The notes under the pieces were generated by a model. That model ran no database searches and was not told the origin of the DNA. It saw only the letters and a list, made by a program, of their open reading frames with translations. From a virus (Duplodnaviria; Caudoviricetes), in the IMG/VR virus record IMGVR_UViG_3300030433_001804, positions 1 through 64,000 of that record: a DNA stretch of 64,000 nucleotides. One strand, 5' to 3'. Every line of letters starts with the position of its first letter. Position 1 is the stretch's first letter. This document shows positions 25-60,931 of this stretch, one piece after another. Position numbers and translations under genes: made by a program.

Positions 25-1677
25 ATGGCAAATACAGATATATTTTTAGGAAGCGGGGCAAGCATAACATTCATACCAGAAAATGATTTATTTTTAGGTG
101 TAGGATTGAAAGATGGTGGAGGAGCATTAGACGGTTCAGAACAAAGCGTCATACAAGTAAATGCAACCTTTGATTCTGACTTTGAATTAGTTACTAATTT
201 GTATAAAGGATGTCTTTTAGAAAGATACGATACAAATGATGTTTTACAATCCACTCACAGAATATCTTCTAATGATGCTAATTCCGTAACAATAACTCCT
301 TCTGCACCAGCCGCTTCTACTGACTATTTTGTAATCAAGTCATATGGCGCACCTGTTCCTGCTCCCGTTTCAACAGCAAAGAGATTACTTTCCGACCAAT
401 GGTTAGGTATTCTTGAAAGTGCTACTTTCCCAACAACCGAAGTTGAAACAAAGCAGATTAATTTATCTCTAGGTGGAAGTAGAAATAAAACCTATCAATA
501 TAAAGGCATTACCTCTTTTAGTGGAGGTAGCCTTAATTTTGTTGCTAATCATGGAGCATGGCTGTATTACTTTTTAGGTAAATGCACAACCTTGACTTGT
601 AGCACAGATGCCTTGACTACTGCATTATCTACTGATGCACATAGACAAACTTTGGCTCATGTTTCGGGCGACAATAATAGTTTCTTAATTCGTTCTATGG
701 ATGCCGGAACAAACGAAGTTGCCGCAGGTGATGATGCTGTTATTGCCGGTATTGTAGAAACAGGGCCAATATTTAGAAGAACAGTCGGTAATAAAATATG
801 TCCTCCTATTACTCCCTTCGAGGCTACTGATGCTCAATTAGATTTTTACCATAAATTAGACAGGCCAACAGGCTCTACTACATTAACAAAAGCAATTACA
901 TATACCTTTGCTGAACAAGATGGAGATTTATTACCTTCTTTTTCACTAGAGCAAAACCTATCTAAACTAACAGGAACTAATATTTACAGAACAAACAATT
1001 CAGCAGAAGCAGAAGATTTGAACTTTGTTAAAATCGCTAGAGGTTGTAGAGTCAATACTTTAACTATGACTGCTAATGAGAATGAAGAAGTTAAGATGAC
1101 TTTAGATTTATCAACAAGAAATGTTCATGACCTCGCCCAAGATGAAGTATATGATGCTAGAAGAGGCGTTACCGATGAAAAAGCATTCACTAACTATGAA
1201 ACTACTATCAACGCAGATGAAACAAGAGAACCGTTTTTCTTTTCTGATGGAACTTTTAAAGTATTAGGAAGCACATTCTTGAAGATTAATACATTGACTT
1301 TAACTATGAATAACAACTTACAAGATAGAAGATTTTTAGGCGTTGGTTCAAAAGATGTTCAAGAATCTATACCAGCAGAAAGAACATATGAAATTTCATT
1401 TACTGGCCATGTTACTGATGATGCTCTCTATACAGCCCTACTAAACGATTCAGAAAATACTACGCAGATTATTGAATTAGTCTTTACAAAAGCCAATGGA
1501 GAAAGCATTACTTTGAAGTTTAATGATTACTTTATTTCTGCAAACAATTTCCCAATACCCGATGATAAAGGGCCGATTGTTGTTGAGGCAACAGTAATGC
1601 CGAGAAGATTAGCCAACCAAACCGATGATTCAATGGATGGTTGTGTTGTAAAAACACATTGGGTTTTACAGGGGTGA
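25..1677 (+). CDS. Major tail tube protein
   Basis: First gene before chaperone and tape measure. C-terminal half has tail-tube-like strands (GCRVNTLTMT, FFFSDGTF, LTLTMNNNL, RTYEISFTG). Confidence 0.7.
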   Translation: MANTDIFLGSGASITFIPENDLFLGVGLKDGGGALDGSEQSVIQVNATFDSDFELVTNLYKGCLLERYDTNDVLQSTHRISSNDANSVTITPSAPAASTDYFVIKSYGAPVPAPVSTAKRLLSDQWLGILESATFPTTEVETKQINLSLGGSRNKTYQYKGITSFSGGSLNFVANHGAWLYYFLGKCTTLTCSTDALTTALSTDAHRQTLAHVSGDNNSFLIRSMDAGTNEVAAGDDAVIAGIVETGPIFRRTVGNKICPPITPFEATDAQLDFYHKLDRPTGSTTLTKAITYTFAEQDGDLLPSFSLEQNLSKLTGTNIYRTNNSAEAEDLNFVKIARGCRVNTLTMTANENEEVKMTLDLSTRNVHDLAQDEVYDARRGVTDEKAFTNYETTINADETREPFFFSDGTFKVLGSTFLKINTLTLTMNNNLQDRRFLGVGSKDVQESIPAERTYEISFTGHVTDDALYTALLNDSENTTQIIELVFTKANGESITLKFNDYFISANNFPIPDDKGPIVVEATVMPRRLANQTDDSMDGCVVKTHWVLQG

Positions 1678-1681
1678 TTAA

Positions 1682-1807
1682 ATGGTATCAAGGGCAGATT
1701 TGATTAAATTGACGCAAATAGAGAAGGCTAAAAAGCCAAAGCGTCAGCCAAAAAAGACAACTACGAAAGCCAAGGAGGAGAAGAAAGAAACTCCAAAGGC
1801 TGAGTAA
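1682..1807 (+). CDS. Small Lys-rich hypothetical protein (41 aa)
   Basis: Read from sequence: MVSRADLIKLTQIEKAKKPKRQPKK...; GGGGTGA SD-like motif upstream; below ORF-track cutoff. Confidence 0.5.
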   Translation: MVSRADLIKLTQIEKAKKPKRQPKKTTTKAKEEKKETPKAE

Positions 1808-1861
1808 GCATAAATTCCACCAACACCGTTTGTTTGTTTGTTGGTTTTAAAGGTGGATAAC

Positions 1862-2224
1862 ATGGAAAAGAAAATAGTAAGTGATAAGAGTGTGCTTTTT
1901 GCACTACAAGAACCTACGCTACATTATATTAAAGTAGCACCCGAAAGTGATGAATACCTAAAAGTGTGGGTAAAAGAACCTACATGGCTAGAAGTAGATA
2001 AGGCTATGAATACCTTAATGAAAATAGACGCCAAAAGCCAAGATGTTCAAATTGATATGAACGCTATGTTTAGGTATATGGTTGAGAACTTCATCGTAAA
2101 GACAGAACCCAACCTATCAGCAATTGATATTCTAAAATTAACTCCTTATGTTGGCAACCAACTCAAGGATATTCTTCCTAATCCTCTAGAGGACACACAG
2201 GAGGATGAACAAAAAAACGATTAA
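1862..2224 (+). CDS. Tail assembly chaperone (gpG-like)
   Basis: Between tail tube and tape measure. ATG at 1862 follows AGGTGG. Ends in slippery heptamer A AAA AAC (2212-2218). Confidence 0.75.
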   Translation: MEKKIVSDKSVLFALQEPTLHYIKVAPESDEYLKVWVKEPTWLEVDKAMNTLMKIDAKSQDVQIDMNAMFRYMVENFIVKTEPNLSAIDILKLTPYVGNQLKDILPNPLEDTQEDEQKND

Positions 2225-2448
2225 TTAGGGAGGCAATAAGAGGTGGGGAATGTTCCCCGCATCTTTCCTCTCAATTAGTTGTATATAGTTTAGCAACAGC
2301 ATTTTCAATTAGTCCGTTAGAAGTATATCAGATGCCATCTTCTTTGGTTACTGATATGCTTAGAATACATTTTGAAATGAAACGCTTGGAAGCAGAAGAA
2401 GTAGATAAACTTGATAAACAGTATCAGACTAAGATGAACAGAAGGTAA
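2212..2448 (+). other. Programmed -1 frameshift and gpGT-like extension
   Basis: The -1 frame after A AAA AAC is open (KRLIREAIRGGECSPHLSSQLVVYSLATAFSISPLEVYQMP...MNRR) to TAA 2446-2448, just before the tape measure ATG. Confidence 0.8.
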
Positions 2449-2452
2449 TAGC

Positions 2453-4441
2453 ATGAGTGAGGTCATTAAAAACTTAGATGCCACTCTAAGTCGTTTAGAA
2501 CAAACCATGCTTTCTATCTTAGGAGCATTAGATAAGAGGGCTTTTAGAAAAGCCAATAAACTGTTAGAAGAACAGTTAGAAAAAACTGAAAAATTAAACA
2601 AAGTAAAAGAGGAGCAATTGAAAATAGAAGAGAAACGAAAAAAGATTGCTGAGTTTTATGCTAAGAAAGATACTGAAGAAGTAAAAAAAGTAGAGGGATT
2701 AACTAGAAGAACCCAAATACTCAATAAAACTCTTACTAAATTAGCAGAAGAACAAGGTCTTGCCAAAAAAGAAAATGTAAAGTTTGGTCTAAGCCTTGAG
2801 AATATGAATAAGTATGTAGAACAAGGAGGAACTAAATTAGAATTTTTAGCATTATTCATGACTTCTGCATCAGAACAAATGCAAATTTTAGGCTTTGAAG
2901 CAAGTTCTGTTAGAAGAGTTATATACGGTTTTCTTCCTAGAGGTGCTTTTAGATTAGTTAATCAACTTGCTACAACCTTTAATGGGCTTGGTAGTGTTTT
3001 TAGAGGAGTTAGCGAAGATGGTGAAAAGACTTCGAGTGTATTAGGAAAATTAGTAAACATATCAAAGAAAACTCTCGGTTTTAAGTTTGTAGATAAGAAG
3101 AAAAAGAAAGAGGAAGATGGTTCCACTGATGATGCTTTTGGTGGACTATTCAGCATGTCTACTAAACAAACTAAACAGGCAATAAAAAATATGAAAAAAG
3201 CAGAAAAGATTTCTAGAAAAGAGAAATTAAAGTCTCAGAAATTAGAGGCTAAGAATGCTAAGTTTAGATTAAAACAACGAATAAAGGAAGAAAATGCGGC
3301 AAGAGACAAAGTAAACGAATACAGAACTGCCGCAGAAAGAGCGTTTGTTAAACAATCTGGTCAGTTCGGAGCCTTGGGAGATACTAGAACATTAGAAGAA
3401 TATAGACAACAACAAGAAGAATTTGTTGAAAGAATGCTTAGTGATGTAAGGGCGCAACCCGGAAGTGAATTAGCGGAACGGGAATCTGCTCTTAGAAAAG
3501 CAAGTAGTAGAGTAAAAGACCAAAAAAAGCAACATGAGCAAGCCGCTAAAGCATTAGAAGATACTCAAAAAAATAGTCCTTTTAGAAAAAGAGCGCAAAA
3601 AATACAGAAATTTACTACAAGTATGCTAGGAACAGTTCGGCAAGTATTGATGTCAGCAGGTAAATTTATGTTCATGGGATTATTTGTAATCATGGGAATA
3701 ATAGTTATCTTGAAAACAATTGGCCCTACTATATTCAAGGCAATAAAAGCGGCTATTGACTTTGCTAAACCAGCGTTTGATTTTATTTTTGAAGCATTTG
3801 GAACAATATGGGAAGGACTTACTGAAATATTTGATGGCATATTTGGTGATGGTGGGTTAGATAAAGCACTATCCGGAATAATAAAAGTAGCGTTTGGAAT
3901 ATTGAAGGTTATTGTTGGTATTTTATATGCTGTTGTTATGCTCTCCATTGGATTTATTGGTAATTTTATCGGTGGTCTTTGGTCTGCCTTTACAGGTTGG
4001 CTTGTAGCGTTCATGTCTAAGGGAAATAAAATAGCAAGGGCGGCAGTTCTAGCAGTAACGATAGCGGCAGGAATAATAGCGGCTATCATGGGTGCGCCTG
4101 TTTTAATTATAGCAGGAGTCATGGGTGTAGTATTTGCTGCGGCAAAATTCCTAATGAAGAAATTAGAGAAAATACCCGGTTTTTCAACGGGAGGGGTGTC
4201 CTCCGGAGGAATGGCTCTTGTTGGAGAAAAAGGCCCAGAATTTGTTTCTTTACCAGCAGGTTCTAGAATTCATAATAATAGAGAAAGTAAAAATATGGCA
4301 AGAAAAGGAACTGTTAATAATTATAACACATTTAACATTAATGTCAATCCTAAAGATTTGAGCGACCAAGAGATGAAAAAGGTAATTGATAGAATAAGTA
4401 AAGAGATGAGAGTGGGATTGGGTAGAAGAACATCACTATGA
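2453..4441 (+). CDS. Tape measure protein
   Basis: Long helical protein with amphipathic/hydrophobic repeats and C-terminal GGMALVGEKGPEFV motif typical of TMPs; canonical position. Confidence 0.85.
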   Translation: MSEVIKNLDATLSRLEQTMLSILGALDKRAFRKANKLLEEQLEKTEKLNKVKEEQLKIEEKRKKIAEFYAKKDTEEVKKVEGLTRRTQILNKTLTKLAEEQGLAKKENVKFGLSLENMNKYVEQGGTKLEFLALFMTSASEQMQILGFEASSVRRVIYGFLPRGAFRLVNQLATTFNGLGSVFRGVSEDGEKTSSVLGKLVNISKKTLGFKFVDKKKKKEEDGSTDDAFGGLFSMSTKQTKQAIKNMKKAEKISRKEKLKSQKLEAKNAKFRLKQRIKEENAARDKVNEYRTAAERAFVKQSGQFGALGDTRTLEEYRQQQEEFVERMLSDVRAQPGSELAERESALRKASSRVKDQKKQHEQAAKALEDTQKNSPFRKRAQKIQKFTTSMLGTVRQVLMSAGKFMFMGLFVIMGIIVILKTIGPTIFKAIKAAIDFAKPAFDFIFEAFGTIWEGLTEIFDGIFGDGGLDKALSGIIKVAFGILKVIVGILYAVVMLSIGFIGNFIGGLWSAFTGWLVAFMSKGNKIARAAVLAVTIAAGIIAAIMGAPVLIIAGVMGVVFAAAKFLMKKLEKIPGFSTGGVSSGGMALVGEKGPEFVSLPAGSRIHNNRESKNMARKGTVNNYNTFNINVNPKDLSDQEMKKVIDRISKEMRVGLGRRTSL

Positions 4442-21811: not shown

Positions 21812-22717
21812 TCACACCCATGTATCTGCACCTGCCGCATCACAAAGACCAAAATAACTACAATGAGAACAGGTTTTGTAGAACCACTTGGTAGGGAATT
21901 CTTTTTCTATGTATGCTGAAATAAGCCTAGCAATATTATCTCTTACTGATGTCATTGAGCGAGTCTTGATAGGCTCAACTTGAACATGGTTAGAAACAGG
22001 ATAATACCAACCCCAGTGACTTACTTCCATATCTCTTGTTAATCCATTTTTTTCAAGAACTTCATCACTAGCATTTTCAATCAGCAGTTGATAGAAAGCC
22101 ATTTCCTTTCTCATACCGCTTGCTTTGTAATCTTTCCATGCTCCCGTTTTATATTCAAAGGGAATAAGTTTACCATCCTCAATAAAAATACGGTCAATGA
22201 TTCCTTGAATGTGAATTACATAGTCTCTATCTAGTGGGAACTTTTTAGAATAATCCGCAGGTATTGTTATTTCTGCATCAAATAGCCCTTCGTTTACAAT
22301 CGGAAGATACTCACTAGTTTTTTCTTCAGACCTAGATTCGATGAATCTTTGAGCCTCAAAAGCGGCCACAGTTAAGGAGACATCATAGTAATCATCTACA
22401 GGCATTAGACTTGTAGCATATTCTAGAACTTCTGCGTTGTTCATTGATTCTGCTTTCTTAACATCAAAGTCATGAAAGAAGGCTTCTCTATGATTATGTA
22501 AAACAGTTCCCTTTCTCATGGCTTCGGTTTGGTCTTGCGGTCTTCTTTCAATATAATTAAATTCATATTTCTTAGGACACCAATCAAAAGAACCAAGTGA
22601 AGATTTAGTAATTTTCAGTATTGGTTTAGAAGGGTCATCATAGTTTTCCGGTTGCCATTGATAACTGTAGTCTTTCATTGAGTCAATTCTCGCTTTGTAT
22701 TTTTCATCTGTATTCAT
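21812..22717 (-). CDS. Cas4-like/RecB-family PD-(D/E)XK exonuclease
   Basis: WCPKKY, GIIDRI, EYKTG, YQL and C-terminal CSHCSYFGLC (split 4-Cys Fe-S motif). Confidence 0.85.
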   Translation of the reverse strand: MNTDEKYKARIDSMKDYSYQWQPENYDDPSKPILKITKSSLGSFDWCPKKYEFNYIERRPQDQTEAMRKGTVLHNHREAFFHDFDVKKAESMNNAEVLEYATSLMPVDDYYDVSLTVAAFEAQRFIESRSEEKTSEYLPIVNEGLFDAEITIPADYSKKFPLDRDYVIHIQGIIDRIFIEDGKLIPFEYKTGAWKDYKASGMRKEMAFYQLLIENASDEVLEKNGLTRDMEVSHWGWYYPVSNHVQVEPIKTRSMTSVRDNIARLISAYIEKEFPTKWFYKTCSHCSYFGLCDAAGADTWV

Positions 22718-40933: not shown

Positions 40934-41566
40934 TCACTCTTCTTCCTCTCCTTTATTCCAATCCTGAATTCTTTCTAAGTTAAATTCTTTATAGATTTTC
41001 AACTGCTTAGGTTTATCTTGATGCCAATAGCCGAAATGACCTTCGCCACCTAATACATATGCTTCAGTCATTAGAGGCTTCCATTGACTTACTGTTTTAA
41101 TATCTACACCACTAAAATAAGCACTACCAAAAGGATGAGTGTGAATCCAGCATCTAATAGGTAATTTCATTCCTATTGGTGGTTGCATACCAAATTCAAC
41201 ATAACCCGGAGAACCAGTAGTAACATAACAATTGTTTTGACTATCAATTACTACCTGCACTTCTAAATTAGGAAGGATTTCTGTTGAAGAATGCCAAATC
41301 GCATCATGAAATTTAAAATTCTTATATGCTAATTCATCAACACAGCCCCTATCTTTCCAAGCAACATCAATAGATTCAAGAGTTAAAAGAGCCTCTTGAG
41401 TCCAAGTATTCAGAATATGTTGTTCTGCCTTTTCTCTAGCCTTCTCTAAAGCCTCAAATTCTTCTTCTGCTTTAGCCCACTCCAATTCTTCGATATATCT
41501 ATCATATCCATCATCGCCATTTCTTTTCTCTTCTTCTCTTATGAACCAATCACCGCTTCTACTCAT
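40934..41566 (-). CDS. JAB/MPN+ (JAMM) metalloprotease
   Basis: LEVQVVID (catalytic Glu) and WIHTHPFGSAYFSGVD = HxH-x7-S-x2-D. Confidence 0.9.
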   Translation of the reverse strand: MSRSGDWFIREEEKRNGDDGYDRYIEELEWAKAEEEFEALEKAREKAEQHILNTWTQEALLTLESIDVAWKDRGCVDELAYKNFKFHDAIWHSSTEILPNLEVQVVIDSQNNCYVTTGSPGYVEFGMQPPIGMKLPIRCWIHTHPFGSAYFSGVDIKTVSQWKPLMTEAYVLGGEGHFGYWHQDKPKQLKIYKEFNLERIQDWNKGEEEE

Positions 41567-42576
41567 TTCTTTTCACCTCTTAATTTCTTTAGCCTCTTTT
41601 CCATTCTTTCGATTCTTTTCTTCTGCCTTGCTTCTTTCTTTGCCATCTTTCGCTCTTTCCTTAGTTGTCTGCGGCTTGGTTTTGTTTCAGTAGGCTGTTG
41701 TTCCTTACGCCCTTTGACAACTTTAGTGGCTTCCATAACTAGGGCAATATTGTCGGGGTTATTGGAGTTTATTAAATGTTCCAACCTTCCCGCTATTGTC
41801 TCATATGAAAATCCATATCGGGCTGTTGCCTCGTCTATGGAAAGGTCATAGAAATTAATTAGCAAATCTAAGTCTTTAAATTTATTCCATTCTTCTTGCA
41901 TAGATTGAATGTTTTTCTTTACCGTTGGCTTCGCCTTTCTCTTAGATTTTGTATCCCAGTTTTGACTCATAGTTTCTTTTTCCTTGATATAATACCACTG
42001 ACGATTTAAGGCGTCCTTGCTTCTTTTCAATATGCTAGAAAGTTTTTCCGCATCTTTAGCACTCCCACAACTACTAATCAAGTTTATTTCCTTCTTAGTG
42101 TATTTCTTTGGTGCTTTTCTTTTTGGTTTCTTTGTTGGCTTTTCTATTTCTTGTAATAGTTTTCCTCTTGCTAATTCTTTTTGAATAGCAGGAGCATTAG
42201 CAAACAGTCTTTCATCTGCGGGAGCCTTATGATAAAATAAATAATTAATCTGCCTTAGATTAAGTTCAATACCAAATTGTTCGTAAAAGGCTAAACTAAT
42301 TCTAGCAAAAGGCATACCATTAAACTTACAAAGATGAACAAAATCTATTTGTTCCTGTGTGTATTTAGCCCGTGTGCCGTAACTTTTCACTTCGGGAATG
42401 ATAGTTTTCCTTTCTTCGAGTTTCTGTATCTTACTGTAAATAGAATGATATCTTCTATTCACACCATATCTCTTTTTCATCAACTTTGCTATCTTTTTGA
42501 TTGAATATCCTTTTCTCTTACTTCTTAATGCATATATTTCTTGTTCTTTCGTCCATTTTGCCATTTTAATCACCAA
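41563..42576 (-). CDS. Multi-repeat HTH/Myb-like DNA-binding protein
   Basis: Three repeats starting KWTKEQE, KYTQEQI, KYTKKEI, each followed by HTH-like helices; very basic. Confidence 0.6.
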   Translation of the reverse strand: MVIKMAKWTKEQEIYALRSKRKGYSIKKIAKLMKKRYGVNRRYHSIYSKIQKLEERKTIIPEVKSYGTRAKYTQEQIDFVHLCKFNGMPFARISLAFYEQFGIELNLRQINYLFYHKAPADERLFANAPAIQKELARGKLLQEIEKPTKKPKRKAPKKYTKKEINLISSCGSAKDAEKLSSILKRSKDALNRQWYYIKEKETMSQNWDTKSKRKAKPTVKKNIQSMQEEWNKFKDLDLLINFYDLSIDEATARYGFSYETIAGRLEHLINSNNPDNIALVMEATKVVKGRKEQQPTETKPSRRQLRKERKMAKKEARQKKRIERMEKRLKKLRGEKK

Positions 42577-54174: not shown

Positions 54175-54636
54175 TCAAACAGAAAGAAGTGAATCGTAAT
54201 TTCCGTCCCATTCTTGGTTCTTATACCATTTAGCCAAACGGTTTCTTGCTCGGACTCCTTCAGCCTTTGCATACTCTTCTGCATCAGCATAAAGTCCTCC
54301 ACCGCTTCTGTTTTGCTTTTTGGTAATAGCACCAATTATTGGGTCTTGATTAAAATAAGTTGTTGATGCTTCTTCTACTGTAGAAACTATCTTATCAATA
54401 ACTACTCTAACTGAAGCAGGTATTGATGATTTTTGTCCCTTCTTGAAAGGTGTTCCATCACGGCCTCTTAATAGTGCTTTAAGTGCGCCTCGACAGGCTT
54501 CTCTTTCATTGGGGTTTGTGTCACCAATACTTAAATTAAGCAAACAGACTTGCTTTAGTCCTTCATCTAAACCTTCATCAGCATCTAGATATTCTTCAAT
54601 TTCTATCTTTAAACTATTCCATGTTGTGTCATCCAT
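54175..54636 (-). CDS. Hypothetical protein, distant paralog of 57048 and 58838 genes
   Basis: MDDTTWN...LNLSIGD...PFKKGQKSS...WDG parallels WN...LSLGD...FPxARKGRESS...WDG. Start ATG 54636. Confidence 0.6.
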   Translation of the reverse strand: MDDTTWNSLKIEIEEYLDADEGLDEGLKQVCLLNLSIGDTNPNEREACRGALKALLRGRDGTPFKKGQKSSIPASVRVVIDKIVSTVEEASTTYFNQDPIIGAITKKQNRSGGGLYADAEEYAKAEGVRARNRLAKWYKNQEWDGNYDSLLSV

Positions 54637-55103
54637 TTTATTCATCTCCGTAGTTTTCAGTGTTGTCGTGTTCTCTATAGTGTTCCCATGCATCAGTCCA
54701 CTTCCATGGTTTTTCTATATATTCTAGCATTATATCTAAATTAGGTATGTGTCCCGAATCAACCATTGCTCTTGCTAATCCACTCATATTATAATGATGA
54801 GTGAACCACGGTTGTTTTTTATCAATCAAAAAATATTTTCCTTCTTGAAGTGCCTTAATTACAGGGTCATTACTTTCTTCCATATTTATTCCTCCTCGGT
54901 TTTTTCTTCATAATTTCTGAGCATTTCTATCAAAGATTTAGGTGGTTTTTTCCATGGCAAACTCATGTTTGCTAATCTATGCATTCTGCACATAGCCAAA
55001 TCGTATGCATCTTGTAAACTCATACCGTTTAGTGCATGATAGATAAAAACTTTATTTCTCTCGCTCCAATTAACAGGTGCTATATTCTTTCTGTCTTCCA
55101 TAT

Positions 55104-55421: not shown

Positions 55422-55554
55422 AATTTTCACAATTCTTAGGACTATATAAAAGGGTTCACATAGAAGCACTAAGCCCCATTTTCACTCATAACTTTTATTA
55501 ATCTATTCGTCTAGTCATTGACATTATCGTGGATGGTTACAGGAATGTGCATTA

Positions 55555-55890
55555 ATAGTTCTCATAATAGTTCTCGTTTTCCGATGAGAAATAATTATGA
55601 CCTAGTTATGCCGACAACCCTACCTAAAATGACCTAGTTATACTGACTCTTCTCATTATTCTCATTTCTCATGACTCTTATCAATATATATTATTCTCCT
55701 CACATAGATAAGTAGGGTAATTTTGTATGACTTATATTTATGTAATACAAGAGAGAGAGAGAAAGAAGAAGAAGAGAAAGAGAAATGAGAATAATGAGAA
55801 GTATTGTAAAAATATCTTACTTATACCTATAACTAGGTCATTTTTTTAGAGATATTTCTCTTCTCACTTGCGAAACTCGATGAGAACTAT
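55555..55890. repeat. Nested inverted/direct repeats, candidate replication origin
   Basis: Perfect 22-bp IR 55649-55670/55780-55801; 17-bp IR 55626-55642/55828-55844; direct copy of ATGACCTAGTTAT at 55597; many TTCTCAT/ATGAGAA; AT-rich; at strand switch. Confidence 0.6.
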
Positions 55891-56097
55891 CGGACATTAT
55901 ACTATATTATATATCATATAACATATAGATATTCTATCAATATAGATATAAGTTCAATTGAGAAGCACCCAAGGTAATGTTTAGACAGGGAGGGTAGAAA
56001 ATCTTAGACTAAAAGTTGTCATATGTTTATAATGTAAATAGCAAATGCTTGCTTTCTTTTGACCTATCTTACCATATGGTTGCGCTTTGTTTTAACC

Positions 56098-56262
56098 ATG
56101 TGTCGGTAGTCGGGGATTTCTACCCCGTAAAAGAGTCGTCACTCTACCTCAAACTTAAGTGGCCTTAATGATGGAAAATACAGTATCTCAACCGCACCCA
56201 TTATATGGATTGTTTAATGCATTCACAACTTTCCATCAATAAGGACACCAGACCCGACAAGG
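56098..56262. ncRNA. Candidate structured RNA element (~165 nt)
   Basis: TGTCGG/CCGACA closing stem, CCTTAATGATGGAAA/TTTCCATCAATAAGG stem, CGGGG/CCCCG and AGAGT/ACTCT hairpins; no ORF. Confidence 0.45.
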
Positions 56263-56266
56263 TGAT

Positions 56267-56509
56267 TTAACCAAGTGCGTTAAATAAATCCTCCACTATG
56301 TCATTCAACATATCATGCATAAGTGTAAATTTGACAGCGTTATCAATACCTGCCATGATTGCCTCCATGGTGATAATACCTATCATAGCGTCAGGTTCAT
56401 CAGTGAAGATAGTCATATCTGTGAAAACTGCTGATTGTATAGAATTATCAACATAATTTTTCATGTTTGGGCTAATGCTTGCGACTCTTTGAACTGCTGC
56501 TTTTGACAT
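56267..56509 (-). CDS. Cassette gene, hypothetical (80 aa)
   Basis: Divergent from palindrome 56557; ACCATA element 33 nt before ATG. Confidence 0.65.
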   Translation of the reverse strand: MSKAAVQRVASISPNMKNYVDNSIQSAVFTDMTIFTDEPDAMIGIITMEAIMAGIDNAVKFTLMHDMLNDIVEDLFNALG

Positions 56510-56617
56510 GCTAAGACTATTTATTATCTTATTAGATATGGTGTAAACAAAGCAACACCATATGGTTGTAACGCTTTGTTAAAACAACCCTAAGTAATAG
56601 GTCATTTAATCTATAAC

Positions 56618-56917
56618 ATGAGAAAAATAACACAAGACGCAATAAGAGCCTTTGAAAATGGATATAATTTCAAGCGAGGTAATACCCGTGTAATAGTTGG
56701 CCCATACTACGGTGAATATTCGGTTCGTCTTTTACTACATGGGAACTTAATCGCTGAAAGAACCTCAAACGGTGTATATATTCAAGACGGTGGTTGGCAG
56801 TCTAACACCACAAAAGAACGCTTAAACGGTTTGAGTGGGGTTAATATCGTTCAAAGGAATTGGCAATGGTATTTGAACGGTGAGGCTTGGAACGGCCACA
56901 CAATCCGCATTAATTAG
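56618..56917 (+). CDS. Cassette gene, conserved phage-type hypothetical protein
   Basis: LHGNLIA...GWQSNTTKERLNGL...QRNWQWY; ACCCTA 31 nt upstream; GAAA and TTCG hairpins downstream. Confidence 0.75.
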   Translation: MRKITQDAIRAFENGYNFKRGNTRVIVGPYYGEYSVRLLLHGNLIAERTSNGVYIQDGGWQSNTTKERLNGLSGVNIVQRNWQWYLNGEAWNGHTIRIN

Positions 56918-57047
56918 GCGAAAGCCCCCTTCGGGGTATAACAAAGCGTTACCATATGGTTGCACTTTGTAAAAACCATACTAATATGACATGAAATCCT
57001 ATCTAGTGCTTCAACGGGAATAGGAGCAAAATAAGGAGGTAAAAAAT

Positions 57048-57575
57048 ATGAAACAAGCAAACTGGAATGTAAATACAAGTAAAGTAAGGGCTTGGGCTGA
57101 AAAGCAACCAAAGTCCGATAACCTGAGTGCGGTTTTATTGTCCCTATCATTAGGTGACAATGCCGCTACTGACGAATTAAGAAGCACATATTGGACAGCA
57201 ATCCGTTCAATTGGTTCTACTATGGATGGTTTTCCATCAGCCCGCAAAGGCCGAGAATCAACTCTAACCGAGGAACAACAGATTGCATTGGCGAATGTGG
57301 AGAGTGTGGTAGAAACTGCCTTTGCTTCAATCCCTACTGAATACCACGCAACACTACTGGCCGTAATAGTTCCTCACGGGCGAACTGGCGGAGTTTATTC
57401 ATCAATGGACGAAATGACTGCTTACTATGTCAATCAAGCACATAACTACATGGTCACTTCTATCAAAGAAGGCCGATTCGCTGGTAAGTTGAATAAGGCG
57501 GGTGTTCCTCAAATCACCCCTCGCCCTACAAAGGCTGAGAAAGACGCTCAAATGGAGGACTCAGAAGAGGTTTGA
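57048..57575 (+). CDS. Cassette gene, paralog A
   Basis: AAGGAGGT SD; LRSTYWTAIRSIGST, ARKGRES, PHGR shared with 58838-59335. Confidence 0.85.
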   Translation: MKQANWNVNTSKVRAWAEKQPKSDNLSAVLLSLSLGDNAATDELRSTYWTAIRSIGSTMDGFPSARKGRESTLTEEQQIALANVESVVETAFASIPTEYHATLLAVIVPHGRTGGVYSSMDEMTAYYVNQAHNYMVTSIKEGRFAGKLNKAGVPQITPRPTKAEKDAQMEDSEEV

Positions 57576-57710
57576 GCCTAAACTGCAACTATTCCCGTTG
57601 TAGCCCCATATTATTCCCTTCGGGGTTTAATTGGGGTTTAACAAAGCAATACCATATGGTTGTGATATCTTTGGTATCTAAAACCATATACAGAATTCAT
57701 TGATATTCTA

Positions 57711-58281
57711 TGTCGGAGGTCATGAGCCGACAGGGATTGACAGAATACCCTCTTGGTCGGGGGTAATGTGCAGGTATTCGTGTAGTGCGACATAACAGTT
57801 TATGATGGGGTAATCCTTGAGTTGAAACTGCTCTATGAAAGTTCGTAATCCTCAAAAGGGGTTTGGTCTAACTAACCAAATGAATATACTTGGCTTGATG
57901 GCTTCTAGAATAGGAGCGACCTAACCGAATGTAGGCGGTATCTACATCATCATTAGTGATACTCAATTCACTATCCCACCTTTTATTCCATATGGCGGAT
58001 TGGCCATAAACCATATAGAAACGAGCCGAAACACAGCGTGGTAAGACAGACGGGTAAACAATACAGTAAGCCATGGCGACCTGTAGGGAAATCAAGAGGA
58101 AGTGCAGTTAATCGGATATGTATGGAGTAGGCGAAGTTTCTATTATACTCATTTGGTGCTTAAGCGATAGATAAAAGCGATGATAGTTCACCATGAAAAA
58201 CGCTATACAGGCATATCAATAAAAATCAAATTACAATAAGGATTGTTCCCTGTTACTGTGTAGCCCTTTCATGGGGTTTTT
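57711..58281 (+). ncRNA. Candidate large structured ncRNA (~550-570 nt)
   Basis: Fills a full cassette slot with promoter-like element and terminator-like hairpin, but no + strand ORF of 60 aa; numerous stems. Confidence 0.6.
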
Positions 58282-58349
58282 CAAAGAACAACCATATGGT
58301 ATGGTGCTTTGCTAAACATACCCTACATAATGAATTTAATTTAATTATC

Positions 58350-58703
58350 ATGAACGCAGAAAATAAAGAGTTTAGAGTTGGATTATGTGCAGGACGACAC
58401 GATATCATTGATGGCGATATTGAGATTAAGGATTTTATATTTCCCAATCCTATTGAAAACCCTAATGACTTTGAGGCTCTAAGATTTCAAGCCAATGATA
58501 AGTTAGAGGATATATGGTTCGCAGGTGGTAAGATTTATCTTTATGTTACCGGGCTTGGTCAAGCCTTGACCGTGGTTTTATCCGAGGCCATGCACCTATT
58601 CGCTTTAACTGAGTATGATATGGAGTTTACCGTAATGCATTATGACAGGGAAACCGGGACATACAAAGGTCATAACTTCTTCGGGGGTGAAGAACCCATC
58701 TGA
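58350..58703 (+). CDS. Cassette gene, alpha/beta hypothetical protein
   Basis: Start ATG 58350, 30 nt after ACCCTA; GLCAGRH and LYVTGL..AL motifs; GCC-TTCG-GGC hairpin after stop. Confidence 0.75.
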   Translation: MNAENKEFRVGLCAGRHDIIDGDIEIKDFIFPNPIENPNDFEALRFQANDKLEDIWFAGGKIYLYVTGLGQALTVVLSEAMHLFALTEYDMEFTVMHYDRETGTYKGHNFFGGEEPI

Positions 58704-58837
58704 AGCCTTCGGGCGTTTAACCAAAGTAACACCATATGGTTGGGATTGCTTTGCATATACCGACCATATACGATTAGCCATTGTATCTATTGCTCAGGGG
58801 GATTGAGTGTTAAACTTTAGTTTAGGAGGTAACAAAA

Positions 58838-59335
58838 ATGAAAATAGAAAATTGGAATATAAACACAGCAAAGGTTCAACTATGGTTGGATAAAGAAGAC
58901 AGGGGAGAAAATGGTCAAGCCATTACTCTCTCTATGGCATTAGGAAATGCCTGTGATAACGATGATTTGAGGTCTACTTATTGGACTGCAATTAGAAGTA
59001 TCGGTAGCACATTTACAGATTTCCCGATGGCTCGAAAAGGCCGAGAATCGTCATTACCAGAAGATATACTCCTATCTGCGACTTCTGTAAGGAATGCGGT
59101 TATAACTGCCTTTGCGGGTATTACTGATGCAGATATTATTTTGAAGGTCATACTACCTCATGGTCGCTCCGGTGGCTCATATGAAACAATTGATGACCTA
59201 GCGGAATCATACGGACAAAAAGCCTTTGATGCTCTTGTTAAGGGATATAAGGAAAACCGTTGGGATGGTTCAATGGAGGGCAATGTCCCTCTAATGTCTC
59301 CACCACCTGTAAAAAACAAGGAGGCTAACGAATAG
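58838..59335 (+). CDS. Cassette gene, paralog B
   Basis: AGGAGGT SD; clear paralog of 57048-57575. Confidence 0.85.
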   Translation: MKIENWNINTAKVQLWLDKEDRGENGQAITLSMALGNACDNDDLRSTYWTAIRSIGSTFTDFPMARKGRESSLPEDILLSATSVRNAVITAFAGITDADIILKVILPHGRSGGSYETIDDLAESYGQKAFDALVKGYKENRWDGSMEGNVPLMSPPPVKNKEANE

Positions 59336-59447
59336 GTTTAACGCTTATTCCCCCTGTAGCCCCTGTGGTTACGGTTATGCAAAGCAAACCATATGGTTGT
59401 AGTTACTTTGGAACGACAACCCTAATACTATCAATTGAGAAATAGAT

Positions 59448-60158
59448 ATGTCAAGCGATATAACCTATGTAAGAACTATGAAGATTAACTACGGTAAAAA
59501 GATGGGCGACCTGCAATTTGCCAAATTTGCCAATGACCTGCAAAAGAAAGGTATTACTATACGCCCTCATTTTGGTAGCAAACCTACATATGGATTTAAT
59601 GAGAAAACTGAAACTAAGAAGACCTATCAAATCGTTATGGACGATAAGGTTGTATTTGAAACCAAATATATAACTGATAGAGATGCTGCTTATGATGCGT
59701 TTAGTCCTTTTCTGACTCTAGAAACTTGTGATGCTCAAATAGAAAAAACCTCTAAGGATTGGACTGAGGTAGAAGGTAGCGTAATTGAAATTGATTTTGA
59801 CCTTGAAGGGGAGCAATACAAATGGTATGACCATGAGATTAATTACCAAAACGGACAATCTATGACCATTAGGTTAGCCAACTCTAACACTGGTGTTATT
59901 CTTAAATTCACCACTACATGGAATCCTGACGGTATTCAGCGCAAAAAAACTATTGAAGAAGTTATGGTTAATCAAGTATTGAATGACATGGCTAAGATTC
60001 AAGGCACTATTGAGGGTCGTTTGAAACTAAAGAAGTATGGCTATGATGTTGAAAATGCGTCTATTGACTGTCATTTTGATGCTAAGACTGAAAGCCGTAG
60101 CGAATGCGCTCCTGACATCATTAACCGTGTTAAGGAGGCTAAGAAGGCTCATTCTTAA
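59448..60158 (+). CDS. Cassette gene, hypothetical (236 aa)
   Basis: ACCCTA 29 nt upstream of ATG; hairpin then palindrome downstream. Confidence 0.8.
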   Translation: MSSDITYVRTMKINYGKKMGDLQFAKFANDLQKKGITIRPHFGSKPTYGFNEKTETKKTYQIVMDDKVVFETKYITDRDAAYDAFSPFLTLETCDAQIEKTSKDWTEVEGSVIEIDFDLEGEQYKWYDHEINYQNGQSMTIRLANSNTGVILKFTTTWNPDGIQRKKTIEEVMVNQVLNDMAKIQGTIEGRLKLKKYGYDVENASIDCHFDAKTESRSECAPDIINRVKEAKKAHS

Positions 60159-60663
60159 GCCATAAACCCGTAAGTCCTAATTAGGCAGGGTATAGCAAAG
60201 CAATACCATATGGTTGTATAGCCTAAAAGATTACACAACCATATGGCTTTGTTTCAAAATTTTTATTTTACTGTTCGTTTAAATGAGTGGCTTTAAATCA
60301 ACAAAAGAGGCAGTTTTGCTTAATATATTAGCCTACTTTGCCCATACTATTATATCATGGACTGTTCTGCCTTTTACTAAGCAACTAATATGTTCGTGAG
60401 AATAACAACTTATGCTATTTAGCCCACTATACTAGAATAAGAAACAATGATTAAACAGTCTAAACAAATAAACAAACAATACTGCTAATATAATAAAACG
60501 ATTTAAACGAACAATGCTATAACGGGCCGCAACTATAAACTTTAAAGGAGAATAATTAAAGAAACAACTTTTTATCCTGTTTATATAAACCATATAACCT
60601 AAAAAAAAACGCAAGTGCCAAATAAATTCCGCCACATTTTTTGAGAAAAAAGGAGATGATACG

Positions 60664-60897: not shown

Positions 60898-60931
60898 AAA
60901 AAATCCGCCACAAATTTTTGGAGAAATTAAC

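Follow-up and report, generated by a model that had tools for sequence, protein, structure and literature searches.

The first 64,000 bases of the viral record IMGVR_UViG_3300030433_001804 (hereafter the window) carry, between positions 56071 and 60247, an array of small gene cassettes separated by copies of a 10-bp palindrome, ACCATATGGT. Comparison of the aligned sequences of this array and those of related viruses shows that cassettes have been inserted, deleted, replaced by other alleles, transposed, and inverted by crossovers at the palindrome. The site is also confined to this block and is almost invariant over hundreds of copies in dozens of diverged genomes. We hold with about even confidence that the region is a hyperplastic accessory-gene block made of single-gene expression cassettes, with a dyad-symmetric site at their joints. 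The full record comprises 96,385 bp and is rated complete by CheckV; its gene content identifies it as the genome of a group-B magrovirus, one of the tailed viruses that infect Marine Group II archaea. Archaeal-virus markers in the genome include a family-B DNA polymerase (PolB) split over two genes, a Cpn60-type chaperonin, and a TFIIB zinc-ribbon protein. The assignment to group B was made because the split PolB and the Cpn60/GroEL protein match the signature of that group, whose hosts are Marine Group II archaea (split polymerase plus GroEL; PMC5434244).

Exact copies of the core occupy eight positions: 56071-56080 (site s1), 56557-56566 (s2), 56951-56960 (s3), 57651-57660 (s4), 58291-58300 (s5), 58731-58740 (s6), 59388-59397 (s7), and 60205-60214 (s8). 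A variant core, ACCATATGGC, follows at 60238-60247, and the spacings between successive cores are 486, 394, 700, 640, 440, 657, 817, and 33 bp. When one mismatch was allowed, the core had 12 matches where 1.9 were expected, a count reached in none of 100 shuffles. All of the sites are intergenic; the listed open reading frame (ORF) from 58296 merely takes an ATG that lies within the core, and its likely start is at 58350. A scan of the complete genome revealed no further exact copy of ACCATATGGT, confining the sites to 4.2 kb. These positions and the shuffle test confirm a preliminary description of the window, which had reported eight exact intergenic cores and one variant, and the genome scan bears out its remark that the motif was not noticed elsewhere in the window.

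The palindrome is embedded in a regular joint. CAAAG lies 4 nt to the left of the core at seven sites and 3 nt away at s7 (59388), and it is absent at s1 (56071). CTTTG lies 4 to 8 nt to the right of the core at seven sites and abuts the variant core at the last pair; the flanks had been described at these distances before. Read in order, a joint consists of a gene, a GC hairpin with a short T run, CAAAG, 3 to 4 nt, the core, 4 to 8 nt, CTTTG, 6 to 10 nt, and a CC(A/C)TA box. The succession of GC hairpin with T run, site, and a box resembling an archaeal B recognition element and TATA box (BRE/TATA), that is, of a predicted terminator, the site, and a predicted promoter, holds at seven of the nine sites. 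The dyad reaches 18 bp in a sequence logo pooled over 222 sites from relatives, and an outer element is present on a given side in about 65% of 334 unique sites (8% by chance), with a modal spacer of 4 nt and a range of 3 to 8 nt. Because these outer elements flank head-to-head and tail-to-tail junctions alike, they are part of the site and not of the promoter or terminator.

The edges of the array have their own features. Site s1, at the left edge, lies at the tail end of an inverted unit; the minus strand has a terminator hairpin there, followed by CAAAG, 4 nt, and the core, and no promoter is evident on either side of it. At s2 (56548-56578, including both the CAAAG and the CTTTG arm), two units meet head to head, and a BRE/TATA-like box is present on each side. 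On the right, the array is closed by a terminal double site (60195-60252), in which s8 and the variant core make up an inverted repeat with an 18-bp stem. Single sites fold weakly as single strands (-2.7 to -6.1 kcal/mol, z of -0.5 to -2.0). The terminal pair is the sole strong folder among the sites (-12.8 kcal/mol, z of -4.1), and this double site is kept in all relatives examined, even where the rest of the array is more distant. Beyond it come about 400 bp of noncoding DNA rich in AT.

Each interval of 394 to 817 bp holds one unit, consisting of a BRE/TATA-like promoter, one gene or structured noncoding RNA (ncRNA), and a hairpin; we number these units 1 to 7 from the left. One self-contained unit per interval and the inversion of one of them (unit 1, with its gene at 56267-56509 on the minus strand) had been noted in the preliminary description and are confirmed here, with the boxes corrected to BRE/TATA-like. 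The content of the array differs among close relatives. The viral locus L125, which is 99% identical in the gene of unit 3 (F0a), is colinear with the window save for one extra 397-bp cassette at s4 (57651), and both junctions of this cassette carry an identical 24-bp tract that contains the core. The s4 slot, empty in our virus, is filled in all five of the strain-level relatives, which come from independent samples, by one of three different cassettes, of which one has no relationship to the other two. At greater distance, locus L126 (85% identity in F0a) has the order new cassette, unit 1, unit 4, unit 6, new cassette, unit 2, unit 3, unit 7. Unit 5, which is highly diverged in close strains, is missing from L126, and every start and end of the L126 alignment blocks falls within about 20 nt of a core. 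Over five relatives, 18 of 42 ends of high-scoring segment pairs lie no more than 30 nt from a core, compared with an expectation of 11% (p = 3e-7).

The junctions themselves are chimeric: the left arm of a site tracks the upstream cassette, and the right arm tracks the downstream cassette. Identities of units 1 to 7 are 76, 72, 97, 88, about 66, 96, and 82%, and that of the backbone is 96 to 98%. Divergence at four-fold sites is 0.10 and 0.11 in the two F0 genes of the array versus 0.32, 0.50, 0.75, and 0.34 in their neighbors, and silent-site divergence differs 3- to 7-fold between adjacent cassettes, switching at the cores. Such jumps at silent sites are beyond the reach of selection on the proteins, indicating that histories differ from cassette to cassette. 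The inversion of unit 1 is exact and takes in the arms as well; its homologues occur in either orientation among relatives and, in locus L127, are co-oriented with their neighbors. Orientation is mixed in 33 of 39 arrays. The cassette pool as a whole comprises 309 cassettes with a median length of 529 bp and 117 protein families, 84 of them singletons. The preliminary description had offered two functions for the palindrome, recombination site or operator. Shuffling of cassettes at the palindrome is supported, since order is not fixed among relatives and breakpoints fall in the motif, and an operator role is plausible only, no binder having been shown by the searches described below. That the regulon so controlled would be an early one, as the description had it, is an assumption.

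We next turn to conservation of the site across the virus family. A pattern scan of IMG/VR found the palindrome in multiple copies in many contigs of 85 to 97 kb. Four or more cores are present in each of 48 viral loci, which have 338 sites in total. Only 70 of these 338 sites fall in crude ORFs, though 66% of array sequence is coding. Among the genes close to the arrays, the one conserved best (791 homologues) encodes a 230-amino-acid (aa) protein and lies just outside the window at genome positions 64534-65226 (L005:4534-5226); it stands downstream of the array in every locus with enough upstream sequence. Among 80 loci with this protein, 46 had about 8 to 10 kb of upstream sequence, and cores lie 2 to 10 kb upstream in all 46. 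Three of these 46 loci have only one or two cores, the array being farther out or a variant repeat being used. Downstream of the gene, the 80 loci together contain only five cores, each of them single, and the palindrome is the commonest 8-bp palindrome upstream of it. When sites were ascertained by their outer arms only, the 10-mer was perfect in 251 of 266 and the inner 8-mer in 262 of 266. The core is unchanged across a range of 45% to 99% identity of the 230-aa protein, in carrier genomes that are otherwise saturated at silent sites. It is present at tail-to-head, head-to-head, and tail-to-tail junctions, with perfect sites at about 12 of the last.

Two loci deserve separate mention. In L229 (positions 800-3600), the palindrome is replaced by a nonpalindromic 19-nt repeat with the core AGCATATGGT (given strand), which is joined to a canonical TATA box; this locus retains a normal terminal site. 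Locus L176 (NZ_NZTP01000027.1) is a 14.8-kb contig binned in a metagenome-assembled genome of 'Altibacter sp.' and has four sites and the same cassettes as the viral locus L127, so that mis-binning of a magrovirus fragment is the most likely explanation.

The cargo of the array is diverse, and a Pfam or PHROG family was found for only one of its six proteins. Unit 1 (56081-56556, minus strand) contains the 80-aa gene at 56267-56509, read leftwards from s2, and a hairpin at 56111-56127; the remaining units are all on the plus strand. Unit 2 (56567-56950) has a leaderless 99-aa gene at 56618-56917, whose product belongs to Kyano_Gp96 (PF23790, E value of 2e-21; phrog_554). The name of this family comes from T4-like cyanophages, and its presence here indicates a gene common to bacterial and archaeal viruses of the same waters. 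Leaderless genes without a family match make up unit 5 (58301-58730; 117 aa, 58350-58703) and unit 7 (59398-60204; 236 aa, 59448-60158). Unit 3 (56961-57650) and unit 6 (58741-59387) carry two copies of one family, F0: copy a is a 175-aa gene at 57048-57575 and copy b a 165-aa gene at 58838-59335, each preceded by a leader with a strong Shine-Dalgarno sequence. A third, distant F0 paralogue of 172 aa lies outside the array (54175-54693, minus strand), at the start of the leftward gene block, where it adjoins a helicase.

Unit 4 (57661-58290) is noncoding. It has no credible ORF and no Rfam match, and a single degenerate inner core is found near 57988. Ten homologous cassettes in related viruses align with it in long invariant blocks, and RNAalifold predicts 61 pairs, with compensatory changes in 26 of them, so that unit 4 behaves as a conserved structured RNA at the level of sequence covariation.

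Magrovirus genomes have two or three F0 paralogues each, and 73 copies are present among the cassettes examined. An AlphaFold model of F0 shows a confident all-alpha fold (predicted local distance difference test score [pLDDT] of 92.5) for which no match was found in PDB, Pfam, or an Atlas search. In F0 cassettes, the 5' untranslated region (UTR) and the 3' UTR can form a long perfect duplex (57000-57047 with 57576-57640 in unit 3, which includes a 12-nt 5' UTR stretch complementary to the 3' UTR, and 58790-58837 with 59336-59380 in unit 6). The sequence of this duplex varies from one F0 cassette to another. Over 56 F0 cassettes, UTRs pair better with their own partners than with mismatched ones (-35.8 versus -23.8 kcal/mol, p = 2e-16), and no such effect was detected in non-F0 cassettes. 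By analogy, the predicted F0 duplex resembles archaeal processing or circularization stems.

The promoter-like boxes of the cassettes are read here as archaeal BRE/TATA elements and not as sigma-70 promoters because the genome is that of an archaeal virus. A sigma-70 -35/-10 reading, as for a bacterial phage, was considered and dropped in view of the split PolB, the TFIIB zinc ribbon, and the magrovirus literature. Hairpin promoters of the crAss-like or N4-like kind were likewise dropped, as no virion RNA polymerase signature was found and the virus is archaeal. Elsewhere in the genome, canonical boxes consist of CC followed by TTTATATA or TTTAAATA and stand 22 to 34 nt before leaderless ATGs. 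In the array, weaker CC(A/C)TA boxes begin 29 to 33 nt before four cassette ATGs (56618, 58350, 59448, and, leftwards from s2, 56509), and it is from this distance that the four genes are taken to be leaderless. The core lies 15 or 20 to 23 bp from the CC(A/C)TA box, and at about 70% of classified junctions the site is upstream of a BRE/TATA-like box.

We searched for proteins that might bind or recombine the site. No tyrosine or serine recombinase, Hjc, Rad51, Y1 transposase, or HNH protein (PF00589, PF00239, PF01870, PF08423, PF01797, and PF01844) was found in the complete genome; the PF00589 search covered all six frames, and its controls were positive. The earlier observation that the window lacks a recognizable recombinase thus holds for the whole genome. 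A PD-(D/E)XK or Cas4-like nuclease is encoded at 21812-22717. The binder proposed in the preliminary description, encoded at 41563-42576, did not hold up: it has no family match and no DNA-binding signature. The 230-aa protein contains two CxxC...HxxxH helical repeats followed by long helices. Its matches to HTH_20, SdpR, and Sta1 are all subthreshold, its predicted structure (pLDDT of 66) has no significant match in PDB, and tblastn against 50,697 phage records returned no match. This CCHH-helical protein and F0 are candidate site binders, and no more than leads. We also scanned 185,579 species representatives for an extended version of the site motif. No Poseidoniales genome was matched by this pattern, which demanded two extra bases, and the only hits were chance single matches and one mis-binned viral contig.

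The account that we favor, the chances of which we judge to be about balanced, is that the palindrome is a dyad-symmetric, protein-binding boundary and regulatory element that also serves cassette shuffling as a short patch of homology. The site would be occupied by a symmetric DNA-binding protein, either dimeric or tetrameric; near-invariance, the dyad, and four half-site-like elements all point to such a partner. Once bound, this protein may activate the weak TATA boxes 15 to 23 bp away, insulate neighboring units from read-through, or both: the usual place of the site upstream of weak TATA boxes suggests activation, and its presence at tail-to-tail junctions suggests insulation. The regulatory or boundary function would be the primary selected role that keeps the site identical, and recombination would be a consequence. 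Because that function would keep the site identical everywhere, it would be the sole patch of identity among unrelated cassettes and diverged coinfecting viruses, so that general short-homology recombination or replication template switching would resolve there. Further, the palindromic core makes each site a direct repeat and at the same time an inverted repeat of all the others, so that excision/insertion and inversion are both possible.

Several observations weigh against this account. Perfect sites stand at tail-to-tail junctions, where no promoter is needed, and a promoter-to-site spacing that ranges from 15 to 23 bp is loose for a classical activator. The near-absolute invariance of the 8- to 10-bp palindrome is stricter than that of most operator sets; it would suit a mechanism for which identity is essential, for instance a crossover core or nuclease recognition. 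Between some recombined sites, the identical tract spans only about 10 bp, less than would be expected to serve ordinary homologous recombination. The two binder candidates, the 230-aa protein and F0, gave nothing decisive, neither having a significant structural match. Finally, the rearrangements were deduced from metagenome assemblies, in which repeats could in principle cause mis-joins; recurrence of the same cassette arrangements in independent samples counters this concern.

Possible, but in our view doubtful, is that the palindrome is the crossover core of a dedicated, direction-less exchange platform. The site would then be dif-like, with 11-bp arms (CAAAG, 4 nt, and AC) around a 6-bp spacer, CATATG, and would be worked by host XerA or by an unrecognized viral enzyme, for example the 230-aa tandem zinc-helical protein. 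In archaea, the 11-6-11 layout, cleavage at the spacer ends, and a chromosomal XerA are established (PMC2958812, PMC8371274), and the layout fits those magrovirus sites that have 4-nt spacers. A symmetric spacer would leave a site-specific reaction without direction, giving both excision/insertion and inversion. All mapped crossovers lie inside the core, the inversions are exact, and the inner 8-mer is nearly always perfect (262 of 266) in sites ascertained without reference to it, as such a reaction would have it; the sites at tail-to-tail junctions, where a promoter is unneeded, and the identity of only about 10 bp in some recombined sites also speak for it. However, the complete genome encodes none of the expected enzymes (tyrosine or serine recombinase, Y1 transposase, HNH, or Hjc), about a third of sites lack the outer arms, and an arm spacing that varies between 3 and 8 nt is at odds with a fixed 28-bp geometry. 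The failure of the extended motif to match any Poseidoniales genome among the 185,579 representatives argues against mimicry of a host dif site of this sequence, although two extra bases were required by the pattern, and the nonpalindromic repeat variant of the L229 lineage is also difficult to accommodate.

Regulation alone seems unlikely to account for the array. Were the palindrome a pure operator or insulator, a transcription-factor site with no role in recombination, selection would have to remove the rearrangements that break cassettes, and such selection would permit breakpoints anywhere in the 60- to 130-bp spacers. Instead, crossovers were resolved to a tract of about 10 to 24 bp, not to mere intergenic DNA, in every junction examined; the L125 insertion is flanked by identical direct repeats of the site, and exact inversions need exchange within a symmetric sequence. 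These results stand against a set of features that do suggest regulation: the predominance of junctions with the site upstream of a BRE/TATA-like box (the 70% given above), cassette TATA boxes that are weak relative to the canonical ones of the same genome, a dyad-symmetric site with four half-site-like elements, and a TFB-like protein encoded by the virus. We consider it very improbable that the array is a nuclease-triggered hot spot, in which the 8-bp palindrome would be the recognition sequence of a restriction-like or homing-type nuclease of viral or host origin and break repair would swap the cassettes. Invariance of an 8-bp palindrome containing CATATG is at the level of a restriction site, and the PD-(D/E)XK or Cas4-like protein at 21812-22717 is a nuclease, but its family is a common magrovirus replication/recombination exonuclease (PMC5434244) with no sign of sequence specificity. 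The lack of an HNH protein in the complete genome, the cost of self-cleavage at eight or more sites per genome, and the tie of the site to promoters in a regular layout likewise argue against a nuclease.

The array has a defined place in the genome, which has a tailed-virus layout. A rightward block runs from 56 kb via terminase, portal, protease, and major capsid protein genes and wraps around to 16.9 kb, and a leftward replication block occupies 16.9 to 55.5 kb. The replication genes and the array diverge at a putative replication origin (55553-55890), an AT-rich noncoding segment whose GA/AT-rich center is surrounded by short direct repeats and by perfect inverted repeats, nested one within the other, with arms of 22 and 17 nt. 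Gene strand and GC skew switch at 55.55 to 56.0 kb, and the array begins just beyond; a location of the array beside the origin is therefore plausible from these sequence features. To the right of the array, a repeated element, in which TCCGCCACA precedes a T run and a Shine-Dalgarno sequence, occurs at 60625-60660 and 60898-60930 before the next small genes, which begin with a common MTW..ILK peptide; this upstream element represents a promoter or leader class distinct from that of the cassettes. The genome has no DNA similarity to the 50,697 phage records, and scans of the window for tRNAs and for Rfam families (at gathering thresholds) gave no match. The assembly has one gap of ten N at genome position of about 89,300 (L006), just upstream of a gene at 89327.

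Magroviruses are among the most abundant archaeal viruses of the surface ocean, and their hosts are uncultured. To our knowledge, nothing is known of their gene regulation or genome plasticity, and the magrovirus literature that we searched makes no mention of promoters, palindromes, or repeats. The array yields a promoter grammar and one almost invariant DNA site that implies a protein partner, and the comparative evidence shows directly that ready-made expression units move at this site, with accessory genes and at least one structured RNA as their content. If a dedicated exchange system is at work, magroviruses would trade ready-to-express genes and ncRNAs among diverged lineages. A single short oligonucleotide now allows the need for a dedicated enzyme in shuffling to be tested.

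Three known systems had been offered as analogies for the array: integron cassettes, pdif modules, and the promoter-early stem-loop (PeSL) modules of T4-type phages. The integron analogy fails. Integrons, too, have single-gene units between palindromic sites and a very diverse gene pool, but the magrovirus has no integrase, and its cassettes carry their own promoter and terminator and occur in both orientations. Further, the magrovirus sites are identical, perfect palindromes that fold weakly as single strands, whereas attC sites are variable and imperfect. The pdif modules of Acinetobacter plasmids and the Xer/dif system are closer in that modules have their own promoters, occur in either orientation, and are bounded by short inverted-repeat sites, whose 11-6-11 geometry fits magrovirus sites with 4-nt spacers. 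They differ in that the magrovirus encodes no Xer and in that its site is fully symmetric with variable outer-arm spacing.

Of the three, the PeSL analogy is the best. PeSLs are regulatory cassettes that T4-type phages have in their hyperplastic regions (Arbiol et al. 2010, PMC2839356; Comeau et al. 2014, PMC4122927). In both systems, the virus is a large, lytic, tailed one with a single plastic region, where short composite terminator/promoter motifs separate small genes, most of them orphans, and close relatives differ by insertion, deletion, or replacement of single genes with endpoints inside the motif; a dedicated recombinase is known for neither. The magrovirus host, however, is archaeal, its promoters are BRE/TATA-like and not sigma-70-like, and there is no sequence homology between the two. 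The magrovirus joint has an invariant 10-bp palindrome between terminator and promoter, whereas PeSLs conserve the promoter and a GC stem; the tract shared between recombining magrovirus cassettes is much shorter (10 to 24 bp), and the cassettes occur in both orientations. Given these differences, the magrovirus array is a PeSL analogue and not a member by descent.

An archaeal parallel exists in the halovirus HGTV-1, in which a TATA-box and inverted-repeat motif precedes most ORFs of one arm (Sencilo et al. 2013, as described in PMC3950731). According to that source, a role in regulation and shuffling was proposed for this motif by analogy with PeSLs. We inspected the HGTV-1 array and found a module of about 90 bp, consisting of a TATA box, a GC-rich hairpin (10-bp stem, 3-nt loop), and a second TATA-like box. 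Both viruses are archaeal tailed viruses with small single genes near a genome end or origin, each gene following the same TATA-like and inverted-repeat module. HGTV-1 has its own sequence and layout, with all units co-oriented, and comparative evidence for breakpoints was seen here for the magrovirus array and not for HGTV-1. Regulatory motifs as joints of shuffled cassettes are thus known already, and the magrovirus array, taken as an analogue, extends the PeSL principle to archaeal viruses. What is new here is the archaeal host, a joint in the form of a short invariant palindrome that is separate from promoter and terminator alike, cassettes in both orientations, and an ncRNA among the cargo.

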